Position numbers and translations under genes: made by a program | Virus record (IMG/VR): IMGVR_UViG_2778261687_000002 | Span: 1 to 6,370 of that record | Origin: a virus | Lineage: Duplodnaviria > Heunggongvirae > Uroviricota > Caudoviricetes | DNA length: 6,370 bases | Direction: 5' to 3' (one strand) | Notes under the pieces: generated by a model | Database searches by the model: none | What the model was told of the DNA's origin: nothing | The model's input: only the letters and a program-made list of their open reading frames with translations | In this document: positions 1 through 6,370 of the stretch, one piece after another | Position numbering within the stretch: the first letter of the stretch is position 1 | Layout of the letters: the number at the start of each line of letters is the position of its first letter

Positions 1-77
1 TGTTTTTGTCATGTGAGTCACCTCTGACTGAGAGTTTACTCACTTAGCCGCGTGTCCACTATTGCTGGGTAAGATCA
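1..77 (-). mobile_element. IS3-type insertion sequence, left end only (terminal inverted repeat, leader, first four codons of orfA); the element continues beyond the window start
   Basis: Reverse complement of 1..77 reads TGATCTTACCCAGCAATAGTGGACACGCGGCTAAGTGAGTAAACTCTCAGTCAGAGGTGACTCACATGACAAAAACA, which I recognise from memory as the IS3 left terminus (TG...CA-type end), followed by a GAGGTGA ribosome-binding site and ATG ACA AAA ACA (MTKT, the OrfA/InsE start) at 12..1 on the minus strand. Not verified by search. Confidence 0.75.
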
Positions 78-410
78 TGGATCGTACTTTAGGATATTTG
101 GGAAGTAGAATTGCTGTGAGCCATATGCGTCATACACAGCCATTGAATGACCTTCAACAGTTACAAATTTCGCAATTTGCCCGTTGTATACTGGATACCC
201 TCCAGCATTGATAACGATAGGCTGTGCAACAGGTATGTGCGTTCCATTTTCGTTTTCCAGATAAACCTGAATCTGGTTTTCAGGATTTACCGGGTCCGTG
301 TCAATTTTACCGATATAAATTTTGCCATTGGCTACGGCTTTAAAAGAACGAGCCATAGTGAAGAGTTGCGAAGGCATGCTTACTACAACATTAGCTGTAA
401 TGTCTGTCAT
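75..410 (-). pseudogene. P22-like tailspike, N-terminal head-binding domain only (111 aa), truncated by the IS3 end
   Basis: Translation [42 protein letters not shown]...LKYDP closely matches the P22 gp9 head-binding domain as I recall it. GGAG lies 8 nt upstream of the ATG at 410. The TGA stop at 77..75 is formed by the first three bases of the IS3 terminus. A full tailspike is about 650-700 aa. Confidence 0.85.
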
Positions 411-468
411 TTAATTTGCTCCAGATACAAGGAATCACCGAAGCATGGCTACGGTGAATTTTGGGCAT

Positions 469-491
469 AAAAAAACCCAGCCGAAGCTGGG
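469..491 (-). terminator. Rho-independent terminator (minus strand) upstream of the tailspike start
   Basis: Minus strand reads CCCAGC-TTCG-GCTGGG followed by TTTTTTT: a 6-7 bp GC-rich stem, tetraloop and U-tract. Plus-strand stem is 476..491 with the A-run at 469..475. Confidence 0.6.
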
Positions 492-543
492 TCGTTGCGT
501 TGGTTATCTGTCAGTAGTTATGTACTGGCTGAAGGATTTGTAC

Positions 544-574
544 AAAAAAACCACCTGACGGTGGGTTAATTTTT
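544..574 (-). terminator. Second hairpin terminator, mainly minus-strand, possibly bidirectional
   Basis: Stem CCACC (551..555), loop TGAC, stem GGTGG (560..564). Flanked by AAAAAAA (544..550), which gives a 7-U tract on the minus strand, and by GTTAATTTTT on the plus strand. The stem is short (5 bp). Confidence 0.45.
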
Positions 575-592
575 GCATTTACCTGGGCCATA

Positions 593-621
593 TTGACTAC
601 TTATAAAATGAGATCAATATT
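593..621 (+). promoter_or_regulatory. Candidate sigma70 promoter for the YjzC-like gene
   Basis: TTGACT at 593..598, a 17 nt spacer, then AATATT at 616..621 (4/6 match to TATAAT), about 35 nt upstream of the ATG at 658. Pattern match only. Confidence 0.25.
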
Positions 622-657
622 TAATCGCCCAATAACGGGTGTATGTTGAGGTATATC

Positions 658-837
658 ATGGCGAAAAAACCAGGTGAAAACACAGGAAAAAACGGCGGAA
701 TATACCAAGAAGTTGGCCCACGCGGCGGTAAGAAAGACAATTTTGCCACCGTCAAGGACAACGAAAGGCTTCCACCAACAACAAAGCCAGGTCATGGCTG
801 GGTATTGGATAAGCGAACTCCAGACAGCAAAAAGTAA
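658..837 (+). CDS. YjzC-like small protein (59 aa), accessory gene
   Basis: MAKKPGENTGKNGGIYQEVGPRGGKKDNFATVKDNERLPPTTKPGHGWVLDKRTPDSKK fits the YjzC-like small-protein pattern as I recall it (KPGE..G.Y.EVGPRGG...TV.....LPPT.KPG..W). GAGGT lies 5 nt upstream of the ATG at 658. The ORF-track start at 643 has no ribosome-binding site. A terminator follows directly. Confidence 0.7.
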   Translation: MAKKPGENTGKNGGIYQEVGPRGGKKDNFATVKDNERLPPTTKPGHGWVLDKRTPDSKK

Positions 838-843
838 TAATCA

Positions 844-866
844 AGCCGGTTCACTCCGGCTTTTTG
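844..866 (+). terminator. Rho-independent terminator of the YjzC-like gene
   Basis: AGCCGG-TTCACT-CCGGCT followed by TTTT, starting 7 nt after the TAA stop. It overlaps the last four codons of the convergent minus-strand gene. Confidence 0.55.
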
Positions 867-1216
867 ATATGTCGCTCGCAGAACTCAACAAGCCTGCTCA
901 TTAAGTAGCAGTAAGTCTCGTTGGCTCTTCCTGGTTCAACATCAACACCTACCCTTGAGCAGATATCGAATGCCATGTGAGCGCACTCATGGGCAATAGT
1001 AGATAGTTTGCCATTGAACACGCCTATCACATGCAAAACACCATTCTCGCTACTCATTGTATGAGACGCTCCGTTGGCGTCCGAGTCATGCACGTCAACG
1101 CCAAGTTTTTGATGCAGGCGTTGCCATTCTGGAAAGTCTCTACAAAACACAATTGTACCGCTCTCAAAGAGCGGAACGAGCATCTTTGGTACGTTTCCAA
1201 TGTTAACTTTTTTCAT
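851..1216 (-). CDS. HExxH zinc-metallopeptidase-like protein (121 aa), ImmA/IrrE- or SprT-like by motif only
   Basis: Intact 121-codon ORF containing [15 protein letters not shown], a hydrophobic-xx-HExxH-hydrophobic zincin motif, with downstream acidic residues ([10 protein letters not shown]). No strong ribosome-binding site (AGGA 4 nt before the ATG). Family assignment is from the motif alone. Confidence 0.55.
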
Positions 1217-1246
1217 GGTATCCTGCGCAAAACTAAGGAGGTTGGT

Positions 1247-1741
1247 GTGTCTGATTCTATGAGTTACGCTGTGCTAGTTGCCGCAACTCTATTTATGGGG
1301 ATAGGGTTGCAGATTGCGTGGTTCTTTTTTTCTAGTTTTATTAAACGCAAAAGAATTGAATCAAGGATATCTGAGATTTCTATTGCTATAGGGAAAAATG
1401 CTGAAAATCCAGAGAATGAGGCCTGCGCACTGAATTACCTTAAAGAAAAGTTTTCCCCTGAAAAATTTGAAAATAGAATTACTGATGCTCTTGGATTGGT
1501 AATATCAGTAATTCATATGCCACTAAGTTTGCTGATAACAGTGTGGTACTTCGCCATGATCGCCGGAAGAATATTTGGTTTCATGAATATAGAGCCTGTA
1601 GTTCTTTGGGTTCCAATGATACTGCAACTGTTGTTAAGCGTTGCTATCTTTATTTTTTCTGTTTTTATAAAAATTGTCTTTGGAAGATACCCCGGAGAAG
1701 CTAAGGGATTTAATAAAGAATTCATAAAAACTATAAAATAA
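1247..1741 (+). CDS. AT-rich small inner-membrane protein (about 164 aa, three predicted transmembrane helices), in the sieA-equivalent position
   Basis: Strong ribosome-binding site TAAGGAGG at 1234..1241, 5 nt before an in-frame GTG at 1247 (the ATG at 1259 is an alternative start). Hydrophobic segments [45 protein letters not shown] and [31 protein letters not shown] content is visibly lower (about 35%) than the flanks. The ORF-track N-terminal extension from 1031 lies upstream of the ribosome-binding site and overlaps the HExxH gene. Confidence 0.7.
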
Positions 1742-1763
1742 ATGCCGTCCTTGGCTTACAGTG

Positions 1764-2912
1764 CTACTGCCGGGTCGCTTCGTTAGCTAAGAGCGGGCGC
1801 ACGGCAGTAGCAGCCTGATTTAGCGCTCTTTCATAAGCTGGCGTTCCAGCTTTAGTGTTTGCCAGACGTAAGAGCGCATTCCTTGCTGCTTTGGACTCAT
1901 ACAAACGCATCATTGCACCAAAACCAGCCTCAAGCCCCATTGATACTCCAAGAGTCGCAGTTGCGCCAATCGTCCTTATCCTGTTGGCTTGTGATTGCCC
2001 CGTCTGAGTTACTACATTTGCGGTGTCTGACCTTGCTGTTTGCTGTAGAACTTCATGAAGAGCATCAAGCTCTTTCATGTGCTTTCCAGAAAAAATAGTG
2101 TTGTAAATTTCACCGCCTGACTGAGATTTAAGCTTATTAACTTCAGTGATGAACTTGGCTGGAGAGTCACCGGCCTTTTCCGCTATTTTGCTGACGTAAG
2201 CTGCACGCATAGCATCTTTCCCTTTATCATCCAATGCGCTCCAGATTCGTTTCACGTCAGATGGTTTTCTGCTTAATACAACGGTATTTATAAGTTCAGG
2301 ACTGGCTTCACTGCTTGCCTTGTTGAGCTTGTTAGCAATGTTTTTATTAAGCACCTTATTATAAACGTTTGCATAATCGGAGTTTGCTTTAAGGTATTTT
2401 GCTGCGTCTGATGCACCAAGGTTTTTTGCAACTGCGTTACGAAGATCTTTTGACATTGCATTCTCTACCATATTGGTAGCTGCTTTTGCCTGGTTTGGGA
2501 AGACCATAGCATCTCCCTGAACATTAGATCTAAATGCTGTTCTGTGCTGACGCAAGAGATCAAACGTAACATCCAAATCAGTTGCAGGGTTTGCTAATTC
2601 TTCGCGTAGGTTACGCAAGGATGTAAGCAGACTTTGATTGGCAGACGTCCCAAGCCGTTCCTGTCTTGCGATCGCTGTATTCAGAGCATTCATGGTATTT
2701 GTGGTATCAACTGCGGCATTACCCATTTTATTGGTGACGTCATTGATAACAGCGCCAGCGGCATCCTTCCGCCCCCTTAACGTGGTGGTCAGAGATTTCA
2801 CCACATCATCAGGGTTGTACTCACCAAAACGGTCAAAATAATTGCTTACCAGCTTACTACGCGTTGCATATTGCTCCGCTCGCTTTGAGCCTGTCCCGAG
2901 CAAAGCCCCCTC
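1764..2912 (-). CDS. Phage virion/ejection-protein-like C-terminal region (Ala/Asn/Lys-rich; possibly P22 gp16-like by position), lacking its own start and fused in frame to the ninG fragment
   Basis: Long open frame with low-complexity, helical composition typical of phage injection or tail-associated proteins. No ATG with a ribosome-binding site; the ORF-track start at 2903 is a TTG inside a continuous frame that stays open up to 3143. The gp16-like assignment rests on synteny (next to the sieA-like gene and tailspike), not on recalled sequence identity. Confidence 0.45.
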
Positions 2913-3107
2913 GGCATCCCACTGAGCAGACGTGAGCGTTCCGCACGAGATACATGGTAAGTCGCGGTCTCTTTCTCTGATGAAGGCGTTTACGGCTTGT
3001 TGGGCTTGTTTAATCCAGTAACTGCGGGGCTTTAAGGCGAGTTTTCGAATCTTAAGTTTATCTTTCTGTTTCTGCTCCTCTCGTCGCCGTTTCTTCTCTG
3101 CTGCTTT
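2913..3107 (-). pseudogene. ninG: ninG (Rap-like) internal fragment, in frame with the downstream virion-protein-like ORF
   Basis: The same minus-strand frame translates as [65 protein letters not shown], matching lambda NinG as I recall it. Homology stops at ...AQWDA (lambda continues GHYR...) and there is a TGA just upstream at 3146..3144. Both N- and C-terminal parts of NinG are missing. Confidence 0.6.
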
Positions 3108-3421
3108 TCCCGATAGAGCATGATGATTGAGTCTGCGTCCTGCTCAATGCTTCCTGAATCACGCAAATCTGCGTTTGTCGGGCGTTTGTTTGGTCGCTTC
3201 TCAACATCGCGCGAAAGCTGACTCAGGGAGATAACAGGCGTTTTCAGGTCTTTCGCCATCGCCTTCAGGCTTCCTGAGATGTGAGCAATTGCGAGGTCGT
3301 TGCGGTCTGCTTTCGGCTTCTCAATCAGGCCAAGATAATCCGCCATGATGAGTGACAGGTTTGGATTTTCCTGTTTGTGCCGTTCTGCGATTGAGCGTAT
3401 TTCTTCGACCGATACCCAATG
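3032..3421 (-). pseudogene. DnaB-family replicative helicase, C-terminal fragment (P22 gene 12 / lambda P-region type)
   Basis: Minus-strand frame reads ...[33 protein letters not shown]...[63 protein letters not shown], which is the DnaB C-terminal signature region. The N-terminal roughly 300 aa (Walker motifs) are absent. After LYRE the frame diverges into the ninG sequence read out of frame ([24 protein letters not shown], stop). The ORF-track start at 3346 is an internal Met. Confidence 0.7.
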
Positions 3422-3571
3422 TCCGATAGCTCCCTGTGTGCATCCAACTGCCTTAAGCCTGAAGAAATGTTTCCTGTAATGGAAGATGGGAAATATGTCG
3501 ATAAATGGGCAATACGAACGACGGCAATGATTGCCAGAGAACTTGGTAAACAGAATAACAAGGCTGCCTGA
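3419..3571 (+). CDS. Small plus-strand ORF (50 aa from the ATG at 3419; 34 aa from the ATG at 3467), possibly the 3' remnant of a truncated gene
   Basis: [50 protein letters not shown]. No convincing ribosome-binding site. The TGA stop (3569..3571) sits in the loop of the hairpin terminator that follows. Below the ORF-track size cut-off. Confidence 0.25.
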
Positions 3572-3589
3572 TGGTGGCCTTTATTTTTT
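3562..3589 (+). terminator. Candidate rho-independent terminator (plus strand)
   Basis: GGCTGCC-TGAT-GGTGGCC (7 bp stem with two G:U pairs) followed by TTTATTTTTT. Confidence 0.4.
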
Positions 3590-3630
3590 GGCCGTAAATA
3601 ATTTCATGCTTATTACAATCAAGGGGATAT

Positions 3631-3996
3631 ATGGAAGAACAAGCAAACAAGATTCTCGTAGAACTACTGCAAAAAGCCAGTAATGGAATAGACGCGGCTG
3701 TTTCATTTAGCCAGGCACAGATTCCTGATGTCATCCATCAGCTTTTGATGTGGCACGCCGTATCATCAGCTGGAATTCAGGCTATCTGTGTATTGGTGAT
3801 TATAGCGTGTGTTTATCTGATGATTTTTGCATGGAATAAAGGAGATGATGCGGATGTTGTTCTTTTATCGCTACTTGTAACATCAGGAATAGCGATTACT
3901 TCTATTGTTGTTTTCTTCAATTATTTCGACTGGCTGAAAATCTGGCTTGCTCCAAAACTTTACCTTATCGAATATGCAGCATCATTGGTTAAGTAA
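3631..3996 (+). CDS. Small membrane protein (121 aa, two predicted transmembrane helices), unknown function; superinfection-exclusion or holin-like candidate
   Basis: Ribosome-binding site AGGGG 4 nt before the ATG. Soluble N-terminal roughly 45 aa, then hydrophobic helices GIQAICVLVIIACVYLMIFAW and VVLLSLLVTSGIAITSIVVFFNYF. Followed by a clean terminator. Moderately AT-rich. Confidence 0.65.
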   Translation: MEEQANKILVELLQKASNGIDAAVSFSQAQIPDVIHQLLMWHAVSSAGIQAICVLVIIACVYLMIFAWNKGDDADVVLLSLLVTSGIAITSIVVFFNYFDWLKIWLAPKLYLIEYAASLVK

Positions 3997-4000
3997 TTTC

Positions 4001-4026
4001 AGGCCGCATAGTCGGCCTTCATTTTT
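4001..4026 (+). terminator. Rho-independent terminator of the 121-aa membrane protein gene
   Basis: AGGCCG-CATAGT-CGGCCT (6 bp stem) followed by TCATTTTT, starting 5 nt after the TAA stop. Confidence 0.6.
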
Positions 4027-4089
4027 GGCATAAACAACAGAATAAACACTGCACTGTGTATTCATTCCAACGAGTGAATATCTGAGGTT

Positions 4090-4293
4090 TTGAAACGCAC
4101 TGGCTATAGCAAGGCGTGGGTATATGCTCTGATGAGCCGAGGACAATTCCCTCAATCAGTCAAGATTGGTGCTCGCGCAATAGCTTTTATTGAAAGCGAG
4201 ATCGATGACTGGATCGATCAACGTATAGCCGAATCGCGTAGTAACAAAGAACAGAAACAAACCGGATACAAACAATACGTTATTAGGTATTAA
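4090..4293 (+). CDS. alpA: AlpA/Vis-family winged-helix DNA-binding protein (prophage regulatory protein / excisionase-like), apparently N-terminally shortened
   Basis: (ISEV)LKRTGYSKAWVYALMSRGQFPQSVKIGARAIAFIESEIDDWI matches the AlpA/P4 Vis pattern (..EV...TGLSRSTIY.L...G.FP.PVK.G.R.V.W...E...W). The only in-frame start after the TGA at 4075..4077 is the TTG at 4090; the usual leading residues of the family are missing. Confidence 0.6.
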   Translation: MKRTGYSKAWVYALMSRGQFPQSVKIGARAIAFIESEIDDWIDQRIAESRSNKEQKQTGYKQYVIRY

Positions 4294-4295
4294 GA

Positions 4296-4487
4296 ATGCA
4301 GTTGACCCCCACCAATCAAAAGCTGAACGTAACCCATGTTGATTTTGAGACCTTCGCGGAACTGATTAGATCAGATCCACAAAAGGTAAGCACCAGCACC
4401 TGGGTTTATGATGTGAAATCCACCAACGGTGGAAAAGCTATCGGCATTGTCTCTGGCGATGATTACTTAGTAATCGATCTGATTTAA
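4296..4487 (+). CDS. Hypothetical small protein (63 aa), translationally coupled to the alpA-like gene
   Basis: AGGT ribosome-binding site 7 nt before the ATG, which is 2 nt after the alpA-like stop. No recognisable motif. Confidence 0.5.
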   Translation: MQLTPTNQKLNVTHVDFETFAELIRSDPQKVSTSTWVYDVKSTNGGKAIGIVSGDDYLVIDLI

Positions 4488-4513
4488 TCACACAAAAATT
4501 GTAGAGTGATTTG

Positions 4514-4532
4514 GGAAGACAGGAAGTCTTCC
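4514..4532. promoter_or_regulatory. Perfect 7 bp inverted repeat with 5 nt spacer (GGAAGAC-AGGAA-GTCTTCC); candidate operator or weak terminator
   Basis: Seen directly in the intergenic region between the 63-aa ORF and the HTH gene, about 40 bp upstream of the ATG at 4570. No clean U-tract follows. Confidence 0.35.
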
Positions 4533-4569
4533 TCCGTATTGCATTTTGGTACAACAGTAAGGGAATAAA

Positions 4570-4764
4570 ATGATTAATTATCTGACCGCTAAAGACGCAG
4601 CAGAATATCTTGGTGTCTGTCTATCACGCTTCTATCAGTTAAAGCGATATATCCCCAGCTTTCCCCCCTATGTAAATCAGACCATCAATGGACGCAAGCG
4701 CAGAGTGTGGCTTGCCTCCAGCCTTGATCAATTTGCCGACAGATTTCTGGGGGGACGAAAATGA
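4570..4764 (+). CDS. Excisionase/AlpA-type helix-turn-helix (HTH_17-like) DNA-binding protein, 64 aa
   Basis: Ribosome-binding site AAGGGA 5 nt before the ATG. LTAKDAAEYLGVCLSRFYQLKR...GRKRRVWLASSLDQFADRF follows the Xis/AlpA winged-helix pattern (LT.keaAeyLGvs..t.Y.l......P.....G.r.rW....ld.w). Confidence 0.65.
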   Translation: MINYLTAKDAAEYLGVCLSRFYQLKRYIPSFPPYVNQTINGRKRRVWLASSLDQFADRFLGGRK

Positions 4765-5147
4765 GCACTCTTACACGTACTCAGGTCGCCGCAAATATAC
4801 GCGATAGCCTACTAAGTGGCAGGAAGCTTACCCCAAAGGAGTTTGATGACATATTAAGGAAAGCAGGAAATCACGAACGTAGTCGCGTTTTAACGCTGTT
4901 ACGCAACGATTGGGGAATTCCTGTTGAACAGTGTAAAACAGGGGCGTATCACGTCACAGAACGCAACTTAGAAGCATACCACAGCGATAAAGACGAAACA
5001 TTGAAGCTCTGGAGGACGAACGCCAGATATGTAAAGACATTGCGTAAGGTAAACATAACGTTGTCGTTGTTGCGTGGGCTGGTGGGCAAAGTGCCTGAAG
5101 ACACGCTTAGAACTATTTACAAGGGTATTGAAACCAAATACCTGTGA
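4761..5147 (+). CDS. Hypothetical protein (128 aa), translationally coupled (ATGA overlap) to the upstream HTH gene
   Basis: Start ATG overlaps the upstream stop (ATGA at 4761..4764). GGGGGA ribosome-binding site 5 nt upstream. No motif recognised. Confidence 0.6.
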   Translation: MSTLTRTQVAANIRDSLLSGRKLTPKEFDDILRKAGNHERSRVLTLLRNDWGIPVEQCKTGAYHVTERNLEAYHSDKDETLKLWRTNARYVKTLRKVNITLSLLRGLVGKVPEDTLRTIYKGIETKYL

Positions 5148-5159
5148 TTGACAAAGTAG

Positions 5160-5186
5160 AAAGCCGACTTTGCGAGAGTCGGCTTT
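5160..5186 (+). terminator. Strong hairpin (10 bp stem AAAGCCGACT / AGTCGGCTTT, 7 nt loop) just after the 128-aa ORF; candidate terminator, possibly bidirectional
   Basis: Perfect 10 bp stem seen directly. The U-tract is only 3 nt, contributed by the stem arm. A TTGACA hexamer at 5148..5153 immediately precedes it. Confidence 0.45.
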
Positions 5187-5215
5187 GAATCAATTGAAAT
5201 ATATGAATTTTACAC

Positions 5216-6268
5216 ATGGAATTATACGATAAAGACGCGAGTCTATCCACAAAATCACAAGCCGTAATCAATCGCATCAATGGTCGAACCTTAGCTTATG
5301 TGAAATCAGTTAAGTACAAACGTAATGAATTAAAGGCGGAGAATAAACGACAATCATCAAAGGCTAACCACTGCATACCACCAGCCTGGACAAAGAGGAA
5401 ATGGCGTACAATGAGGCGAGCTTTGTTTACTCTGGATGTCGAATCAACTAGTGGTATCCCCTACTCCTTTACCTTCAGACCCGTTAAGGGAACAACGCCA
5501 GAGAAATTCAACAAAGCGTTAAAGGCACTTACCAGATGGTTGACTTCGAAAGGCAATCAGTGGGTTTACGTCATGGAGTGGGCTCGACACCAGTCAGAGC
5601 CGCATGTACACGCAATAATCATGGTGAACGAAAGAAGCATTAATGGGCAAGCTGGCAAAATTGTCAGCAAATGGGTAACACTGGCAAACAATGCAATCCC
5701 ATCAAATGTTCCTCCTCAGTGGGATCTAGATTTGAAAGGTCAGCAATATTCAGAGCCTACAAAGTGTATAGGTAAACAGATTGATTACATGGCAAAGCCC
5801 GAAACTAAGTTAAATGACTTTAATAGAGAGGCGAGCAAGAGCCTATATGATTGGTCAGATGCCACCGTTTGGGGTTATTCGAATGGCTGGGCGCGGCATG
5901 AGATAAAAAAAGAAACACTTTCTATCACTGGCTTTCATGCTGTAAGACGCATACTAAAAGCCATTCAGGCATCAAGGAAAGACAACTACAAAGTTAAGCG
6001 ACAGATACAGCGTACATTGAAACGACAAGACATAAATCGCTCACCAATCACCCCATTCCAAGCACCGTTAATTAGCAAACACGATTGGGATTTATCAGTG
6101 ATAGCGGTCACCAAAGAGGCAGAGACAGAGCGCAGGGAGTTACTATCCTCACAGATAATAAACTCGAACAAAGTACAAACCTACCCGCTGTTAAGGATGT
6201 TAAGAAAAGCACGAGTGAGAGCATCAAGAGCCAGAAGAGAAAGCGGAGGTTATGACCTTTACTACTAG
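5216..6268 (+). CDS. Putative HUH-type rolling-circle replication initiator (Rep), 350 aa; compare inovirus gene II-like or CP4-57 YfjI-like proteins found next to alpA
   Basis: Long ORF with motif I-like FTLD (aa 71-74), HUH motif EPHVHAIIMV (aa 128-137) and a YxxK tyrosine motif QIDYMAKPETK (aa 188-198), each about 59 aa apart, with a basic C-terminal tail. No ribosome-binding site before the ATG at 5216, so the start is uncertain. Function inferred from motifs only. Confidence 0.5.
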   Translation: MELYDKDASLSTKSQAVINRINGRTLAYVKSVKYKRNELKAENKRQSSKANHCIPPAWTKRKWRTMRRALFTLDVESTSGIPYSFTFRPVKGTTPEKFNKALKALTRWLTSKGNQWVYVMEWARHQSEPHVHAIIMVNERSINGQAGKIVSKWVTLANNAIPSNVPPQWDLDLKGQQYSEPTKCIGKQIDYMAKPETKLNDFNREASKSLYDWSDATVWGYSNGWARHEIKKETLSITGFHAVRRILKAIQASRKDNYKVKRQIQRTLKRQDINRSPITPFQAPLISKHDWDLSVIAVTKEAETERRELLSSQIINSNKVQTYPLLRMLRKARVRASRARRESGGYDLYY

Positions 6269-6370
6269 TAGTGACAGATCGTGACAAGGCTGTGGCTTTG
6301 TTGAATAAATCAGATTTCGGGTAAGTCTCCCCCGTAGCGGGTTGTGTTTTCAGGCAATACGCACGCTTTC

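Follow-up and report, generated by a model that had tools for sequence, protein, structure and literature searches.

Why does a small membrane-protein gene stand, seemingly by itself, where two modules of a prophage remnant meet? The question is posed by a 6,370-nucleotide stretch of Caudoviricetes DNA (positions 1 to 6,370 of IMG/VR record IMGVR_UViG_2778261687_000002), which in its entirety is referred to here as the window. An initial annotation, made from the sequence alone, had described a 121-residue protein encoded by a stand-alone gene lying between decayed lambdoid fragments and an AlpA/Rep module, and had likened it to the exclusion or toxin-like cargo frequent at prophage module boundaries. 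We find that the open reading frame (ORF) is, with high confidence in its identity and anatomy taken together, an intact copy of a widespread phage accessory gene belonging to the family PHROG 3054. In intact phages the gene is an internal member of the lambdoid/P22-like early-left (pL) operon and not free-standing cargo. Its boundary position in the window arises from deletion and rearrangement, the gene being the last piece of decayed lambdoid material. The ORF in question is:

3631..3996, + strand: ORF for the PHROG 3054 small inner-membrane protein (ATG start, 121 aa)

The match to PHROG 3054 spans the whole protein (residues 1-121 against positions 1-137 of the 137-position profile; E = 6.2e-47, 160.7 bits) and supplies the family that the initial annotation had been unable to assign. 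The window protein shares the architecture of this family, namely an N-terminal segment, two transmembrane (TM) helices and the motif W-L-K-I-W-x-A-P-K-x-Y-L-x-E-Y. Members include Sf6 gene 34, CUS-3 ECRS218_0047, phi92 gp220 and SPN9CC AEW47744.1, the last of which differs from the window protein at a single position (V76 in the window, I76 in AEW47744.1). Considering the profile match and the strong conservation of the ORF, we conclude that this is a real gene, as the initial annotation had supposed, and one under selection, far beyond chance. It is not a new one, since it is already catalogued under PHROG 3054 and its exact sequence is public.

A first search recovered 574 relatives, and a profile search of 1.84 billion representatives yielded 4,678 clusters (50% identity) at E <= 1e-3 and 1,972 at E <= 1e-10. 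Homologues were found by tblastn in 178 phage records, while the exact 121-aa sequence was located in 574 assembly-collection blocks, intact prophages among them. Prophages bring PHROG 3054 to at least a third of complete E. coli genomes; the hosts of phages with family members include Escherichia, Salmonella, Vibrio, Pseudomonas and Rheinheimera. The same 121-aa form is carried by HK633 (Hendrixvirinae; E. coli) and by P22-like Lederbergvirus phages of Salmonella, which have unrelated virions. Neither lambda nor P22 figures in the listed 60 best-matching phage records (tblastn, E <= 1e-5), and on this ground the gene appears to be dispensable to phages. In the HK633 record (L001) the full 121-aa ORF is unannotated, an overlapping, out-of-frame 129-aa ORF (3691-4080) and only the last 58 codons (4190-4366) having been called instead; this looks like a mis-annotation of the gene.

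Other resources were silent on the family. Pfam gave no match for the window protein (best Vma12, E = 0.19) and scattered single hits across 97 relatives; an NCBIfam search of the window protein returned insignificant hits only, as did the PADLOC models (best E = 0.065, 10.9 bits). Sequence and profile searches of the PDB revealed no relative, and the profile searches gave no hit to a housekeeping or structural family. We found no paper naming PHROG 3054. The genome papers on phages L and epsilon34 assign this gene slot no function, and neither a preprint on N4 lysis inhibition nor an experimental-evolution paper on Sf6 has a bearing on the gene.

The predicted soluble N-terminus followed by two TM helices was borne out. 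Kyte-Doolittle analysis located two hydrophobic segments, with 19-residue peaks at residues 49-67 (2.79) and 76-94 (2.49), behind a non-hydrophobic N-terminus of ~45 residues, and a TMHMM count of 2 is tabulated for the one-residue variant AEW47744.1 (Silas et al. supplement, bioRxiv 10.1101/2023.04.06.535777). Exactly two hydrophobic segments were present in 255 of 269 relatives, the distance between their 19-residue cores ranging from 8 to 69 residues. The protein divides into three parts, for which conservation is given as the mean frequency of the commonest residue among 97 family representatives at 50% identity:

aa 1-42 (3631..3756, + strand): conserved N-terminal extramembrane segment; motif G19, F26, Q-I-P32-D-V-x-x-Q-L-L-x-W41; conservation 0.62
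aa 43-98 (3757..3924, + strand): hypervariable TM hairpin; TM1 ~43-68 (conservation of aa 43-68, 0.30), loop 69-75 (0.32), TM2 76-98 (0.22)
aa 99-121 (3925..3993, + strand): C-terminal helix, the best conserved part; motif W-L-K-I-W-x-A-P-K-x-Y-L-x-E-Y-A-A-x-L; conservation 0.76

Residues F26, P32 and K109 are invariant in the PHROG 3054 alignment, and G19, V34, Q37-L38-L39, W41, W101, I104, A107-P108, L112, E114-Y115 and L119 are nearly so. When the last 24 codons (stop included) were compared with those of the 53%-identical CUS-3 homologue, 13 were identical, 9 synonymous and 2 conservative non-synonymous; judged by such codon comparison, the C-terminal helix is under purifying selection. 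In nucleotide sequence, the window and CUS-3 hardly differ ahead of the gene, over its first ~100 nt and over its last ~30 nt together with the terminator, and the centre of the gene is unalignable. Near-identical ends around an unalignable centre therefore indicate that the membrane hairpin is exchanged by recombination, with the conserved ends acting as crossover sites. For a gene of this size such a cassette-like pattern (3757-3924) is unusual: among phages infecting one host, ends and flanks are near-identical and the centre varies in length.

AlphaFold2 (pLDDT 80.7) predicted three helices, at residues 2-70, 74-97 and 100-120. We doubt the single continuous helix 2-70, given a pLDDT of 59-74 in its N-terminal part and given that covariation (Neff ~198) favours a different fold: the pairs 5-27, 8-27, 12-27 and 12-21 probably denote an N-terminal helical hairpin within aa 1-42. 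Residue 50 covaries with residue 99, which fits a membrane hairpin, and both conserved ends of the protein must lie on one face of the membrane. As to which face, relatives possess 2.83 Lys/Arg per 12 residues just after TM1 versus 0.32 just before it, and the N-tail is net negative (-2.8); together these favour a cytoplasmic loop and periplasmic termini. Two features count against that orientation, namely total Lys/Arg (5.2 in the N plus C tails, 4.25 in the loop) and the acidic character of the short loop of the window protein, NKGDDAD. Weighing these signals, we lean somewhat towards an N-out/C-out topology.

The gene's place in intact phages is consistent. On a single strand, the order is cI - N - (ral, sieB or other small gene) - 121-aa gene - ... 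- cIII - kil - erf/recT - abc2, and the cI/N ... cIII/kil order was seen in HK633, SPLA1b and CUS-3 as well as in the prophage loci L007-L011 and L013, which carry the identical protein. Across 80 IMG/VR loci, each N or cI detected lay upstream and each cIII, kil or erf downstream, on the + strand, with 0 exceptions. The intact phages thus show the placement that defines a lambdoid pL gene: downstream of N, upstream of cIII/kil and co-oriented with them. Its pL neighbours (Ral, SieB, Kil, cIII and Abc2) have host-modulating functions. The local signals around the gene are as follows:

3560..3590, + strand: upstream terminator-like hairpin and T run (9 bp, stem 3560-3581), overlapping the ral stop codon
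3621..3626, + strand: Shine-Dalgarno-like AAGGGG, 5 nt before the ATG of the 121-aa ORF
4001..4026, + strand: downstream terminator-like hairpin and TCATTTTT (stem 4001-4018, 6 bp, 5 of them G-C)

The ribosome-binding site is a good one, as had been noted; phage copies of the gene align with AAGGTG where the window has AAGGGG. The downstream hairpin (dG -9.7 kcal/mol, z = -2.1 versus shuffles) is kept in phage copies with one tail base differing and, with its T run, is plausible as a terminator, although its earlier description as a textbook example was generous for a 6-bp stem of that stability. The upstream hairpin is the stronger of the two (dG -13.9 kcal/mol, z = -2.3) and is kept in CUS-3 and HK633. 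In intact phages the spacer from the preceding gene to the 121-aa gene measures 59 nt and is occupied by this hairpin and the Shine-Dalgarno site. A simple consensus scan detected no sigma-70-like promoter within window positions 2300-4350, and an Rfam scan of positions 3300-4400 gave no credible match. Of the two signals expected of a moron, the gene thus has its own downstream terminator but lacks an upstream promoter of its own. The term stand-alone does not survive the missing promoter-like site, the second terminator hairpin directly upstream and the gene's membership of the pL operon in intact phages. The gene had also been called AT-richer than its flanks; this is true only of the left flank (GC of 0.46-0.52 upstream against 0.38-0.41 in the gene region), the right having 0.41-0.43.

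In lambda, N-modified RNA polymerase passes the intrinsic terminators of the pL operon. Given such readthrough, we infer that the flanking hairpins do not make the gene autonomous. From its position and from lambda biology, the protein would be made early in lytic growth or following induction and not from a repressed prophage, and early expression in lambdoid/P22-like phages is accordingly a likely property on these analogies.

The gene is also carried by strictly virulent phages: phi92/rV5-like myoviruses (phi92 gp220), N4-like Schitoviridae (FSL SP-058 and Vibrio phage 1.238.B), ~59-kb Vibrio phages, Pseudomonas phage Bjorn and Rheinheimera phage Barba19A. In the contexts examined, all of these copies sit among early or middle genes and none resides in a lysis cassette. 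No conserved neighbour gene was found across the phi92, FSL SP-058, Vibrio 1.238.B, CUS-3 and HK633 contexts, and the small upstream genes in phi92, FSL SP-058 and Vibrio phage 1.238.B show no relationship with Ral or with one another. In Barba19A (L097, 2944-6348) a block of genes for a macro-domain protein, a ribose-phosphate pyrophosphokinase and a nicotinate phosphoribosyltransferase is found two genes downstream of the family member. We take this block to resemble the phage counter-defence modules that reconstitute NAD+.

How, then, did an operon gene come to stand at a boundary? Two features delimit the material to which it belongs in the window:

3419..3571, + strand: ral (anti-restriction) remnant, 5'-truncated (Pfam PF11058, E = 4.4e-25, profile 24-66 of 66)
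4079..4080, unstranded: right joint from the lambdoid fragment to the AlpA/Rep element (fragment matches stop at 4080, AlpA/Rep matches begin at 4079)

The gene is contained in a lambdoid fragment of 628 bp (~3453-4080) comprising the 3' end of ral, a terminator, the 121-aa gene and a second terminator, and phage and E. coli prophage sequences match the DNA here only over 3453/3454-4080. Ral homology begins at ~3455, with the left joint at ~3453, inside ral; at the right joint, 4079/4080, AlpA starts exactly, at profile position 7 of 51. The gene is therefore not placed between the lambdoid fragments and the AlpA/Rep module, as had been thought, but is itself the last of those fragments. Immediately to the left lies an inverted DnaB_C helicase fragment (3032-3346, - strand, profile 135-222 of 255). 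Three fragments from distant parts of a P22-like genome adjoin in this region, namely those of a DNA ejection/transfer protein (1764-2903, - strand), DnaB_C and ral, and on sequence grounds their juxtaposition indicates several deletion or inversion events.

The same arrangement, found by exact-protein look-up, exists in a second assembly (L012, GCA_019958005.1), which is 99.98% identical over window positions 78-6293. None of the complete E. coli RefSeq genomes covers more than 70% of positions 3400-4300 in one place, and both junctions gave zero exact matches in species-representative genomes. To the right of the joint, positions 4078-6268 (+ strand) encode AlpA, a second helix-turn-helix protein, a 128-aa ORF and a rolling-circle-type Rep (PF23343), suggestive of a small integrative or satellite-like element. 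In L012 (8325-10366) this AlpA/Rep element is followed by RVT_1 reverse transcriptase and PRTase-CE genes, a retron-like pair located just outside the window.

Because pL, N and the 5' part of ral have been lost, a terminator lies directly upstream and no promoter was detected, the gene is probably silent here, and we regard a silent passenger as the better description of this copy, with some reserve. The simplicity of the consensus promoter scan counts against this view. For the window itself the gene carries little weight, being an ordinary and probably unexpressed remnant of a P22-like/lambdoid prophage.

The function of the family was approached through a published screen of accessory genes (Silas et al., bioRxiv 10.1101/2023.04.06.535777; part as PMC12373910). 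Supplementary File 3 of that study lists AEW47744.1 of Salmonella phage SPN9CC (121 aa) as UDP0047, with no functional comment. The gene was chosen there as an accessory gene and sits in the 'Ral' accessory region as the authors define it. In the screen, 200 accessory genes were expressed in ECOR strains, which were challenged with T2-T7, P1 and lambda; the panel contained no P22-like, N4-like or rV5-like phage, and Silas et al. call their own detection of exclusion phenotypes variable. We considered orf184, the 'widely distributed' Ral-region gene that triggers gop-beta-cII, as a match and rejected it, as it is a library entry separate from UDP0047.

We propose that the protein would serve in conflict, acting at the inner membrane in the early phase of lytic growth, and that it may protect the already infected cell against secondary infection, its conserved termini engaging a conserved component of the host inner membrane. 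An envelope-level conflict factor of this kind, most likely one blocking secondary infection, is offered tentatively, and by analogy an exclusion role is possible. Blocking of secondary infection leads our suggestions because an early protein with two TM helices, Imm, does precisely this, because the mosaic and diversifying pattern fits competition between phages and because the screen was conducted without phages related to the carriers. Several observations weigh against it. Neither T4 Imm nor P22 SieA has sequence or profile similarity to the protein (hhalign). Termini conserved across phages of Escherichia, Vibrio, Pseudomonas and Rheinheimera would fit any conserved host target and not DNA entry specifically. 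Silas et al. do not list UDP0047 with their conditionally lethal, host-sensitising or phage-excluding genes (bioRxiv 10.1101/2023.04.06.535777). Finally, the assignment of a function to the family proceeds by inference. Our confidence in the best explanation as a whole falls short of even, a rating that mixes identity and anatomy, early expression and the functional guess.

Host takeover is almost as probable as a block to secondary infection, though we consider it doubtful. Here the N- and C-terminal helices would bind a conserved inner-membrane or membrane-proximal machine (division, envelope synthesis, secretion or proteolysis) and inhibit or redirect it, working alongside Kil, which acts on FtsZ, and cIII, which acts on FtsH, whose genes lie only a few positions further down the operon. 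That the termini are conserved in phages of three virion types and several gammaproteobacterial genera is better explained in this way than by exclusion. The operon shared with kil and cIII and the early or middle blocks of the virulent phages are compatible with it, and so is the ECOR screen, in which no defence-related phenotype was reported for UDP0047. However, no partner is known, and UDP0047 was not reported to be generally toxic or conditionally lethal on induction. The hypervariable, cassette-exchanged hairpin would also go unexplained, unless it is a mere anchor.

Counter-defence, whereby the protein would neutralise an abortive-infection or exclusion system associated with the membrane (such as a two-TM effector, a SieB/Rex-like or a Zorya/Kiwa-type system), is unlikely. 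The gene does belong to the Ral accessory region beside anti-restriction and anti-RecBCD genes, its diversifying, recombining centre suggests an arms race and the Barba19A homologue lies close to the macro-domain/PRPP synthetase/NAPRT block. Yet no ECOR host is reported to have been sensitised by UDP0047, the PADLOC matches were insignificant (E = 0.065) and the three virulent-phage contexts and two lambdoid phages have no conserved partner gene.

Less probable still is the boundary cargo of the initial annotation, that is, an autonomous moron-type gene at a prophage module boundary whose exclusion or toxin-like product is expressed in the lysogen. The small size and membrane character of the protein, the gene's own ribosome-binding site and downstream terminator and a GC content below that of the left flank would suit this idea, and a true prophage-expressed exclusion gene, sieA, is present in the same window. 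Against these stand the missing promoter-like site (2300-4350) and the terminator directly upstream, the 59-nt spacer that hairpin and Shine-Dalgarno site fill in intact phages, the invariable co-orientation within an N-antiterminated pL operon, the carriage of the gene by virulent phages and the origin of the boundary position as a rearrangement artefact. No toxicity was reported for the near-identical UDP0047, and expression of an exclusion or toxin function of the lysogenic-conversion type is unlikely because the gene has no promoter of its own. Weakest is an antiholin-like regulator of lysis timing whose variable hairpin pairs with the phage's own holin: two TM helices and a hypervariable membrane part recall holin diversity, but the gene is never beside lysis genes in the contexts examined, belongs to an early and not a late operon, has an identical 121-aa form in phage groups as different as HK633 (Hendrixvirinae) and the P22-like Lederbergvirus, and has no Pfam holin match in the window protein or 97 relatives, so that we hold this reading to be highly improbable.

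The proposed conflict factor has wider implications than the window itself. The family is a large 'known unknown' of ~4,700 clusters (50% identity), devoid of a Pfam model and kept by unrelated virulent phages in their early regions. Speculatively, PHROG 3054 might represent a class of envelope effectors, new and very widespread, that phages deploy early, in which the terminal helices (possibly periplasmic) engage a conserved host inner-membrane machine while the hairpin is swapped as in an arms race; we would not put this above a possibility worth stating. If true, it would describe an effector mechanism common to lambdoid, N4-like, rV5/phi92-like and Vibrio phages that has no characterised homologue. 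Identification of the target of PHROG 3054 would fill a gap in the biology of the lambdoid early operon and could reveal a common early action of phages on the inner membrane.

The remainder of the window contains further phage-derived genes and an insertion. The end of an IS3-family element (1-77) abuts and truncates a tailspike gene (75-410, - strand), reducing it to the N-terminal head-binding domain, which is of the P22 type; L012 is without the IS3-family element and its tailspike gene is longer. An intact sieA (1247-1741, + strand), encoding the P22-type superinfection exclusion protein A (PF26849 on the identical L012 gene), lies 1.9 kb from the 121-aa gene. A 59-aa YjzC-like ORF (658-837, + strand) has a Pfam E-value of 0.0013, under the curated cut-off, and is followed directly on its 3' side by a GC-rich hairpin (~841-865) and T run; it is more like a self-contained insert than is the 121-aa gene. 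A second ORF of 121 aa (851-1216, - strand) possesses an HExxH-like motif, HECAH, and has no Pfam match; it is conserved beside sieA in prophages of E. coli, whose annotation labels it hypothetical.

Several known systems can be compared with the PHROG 3054 gene of the window. T4 Imm is made early in infection and blocks the DNA entry of secondary phages. Its likeness to the window protein is a functional analogy that we propose, the two being unrelated in sequence (hhalign probability 0.6%; no Pfam match to PF14373), and Imm is without the conserved N-terminal segment of ~42 residues and the conserved C-terminal helix of PHROG 3054. What Imm (PF14373) does have is a small size and two TM helices (Silas et al. 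supplement, bioRxiv 10.1101/2023.04.06.535777). P22 SieA (PF26849) is likewise an inner-membrane protein of a P22-like phage and acts in inter-phage conflict, but it has no similarity to the window protein (hhalign probability 0.2%), its gene occupies a different region, beside the tailspike gene in both the window and L012, and it is described as expressed from the prophage. Lambdoid morons (promoter - gene - terminator, for example HK97 gp15) resemble the window gene in being small accessory genes in a variable slot, followed by a terminator and AT-richer than one flank; the window-type gene, however, has no promoter, would be transcribed within pL and is found in virulent phages also. On the lambda and P22 maps, lambda Ea10 and P22 gene 17 presumably fill the same ral-proximal pL slot, downstream of ral and before cIII/kil. 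We take both to be unrelated soluble proteins, so that position alone is shared. The closest counterparts are the other members of PHROG 3054 themselves, which have the same length class, the same two-helix architecture and the same lambdoid operon slot, and from which the window gene differs in being detached from its operon.

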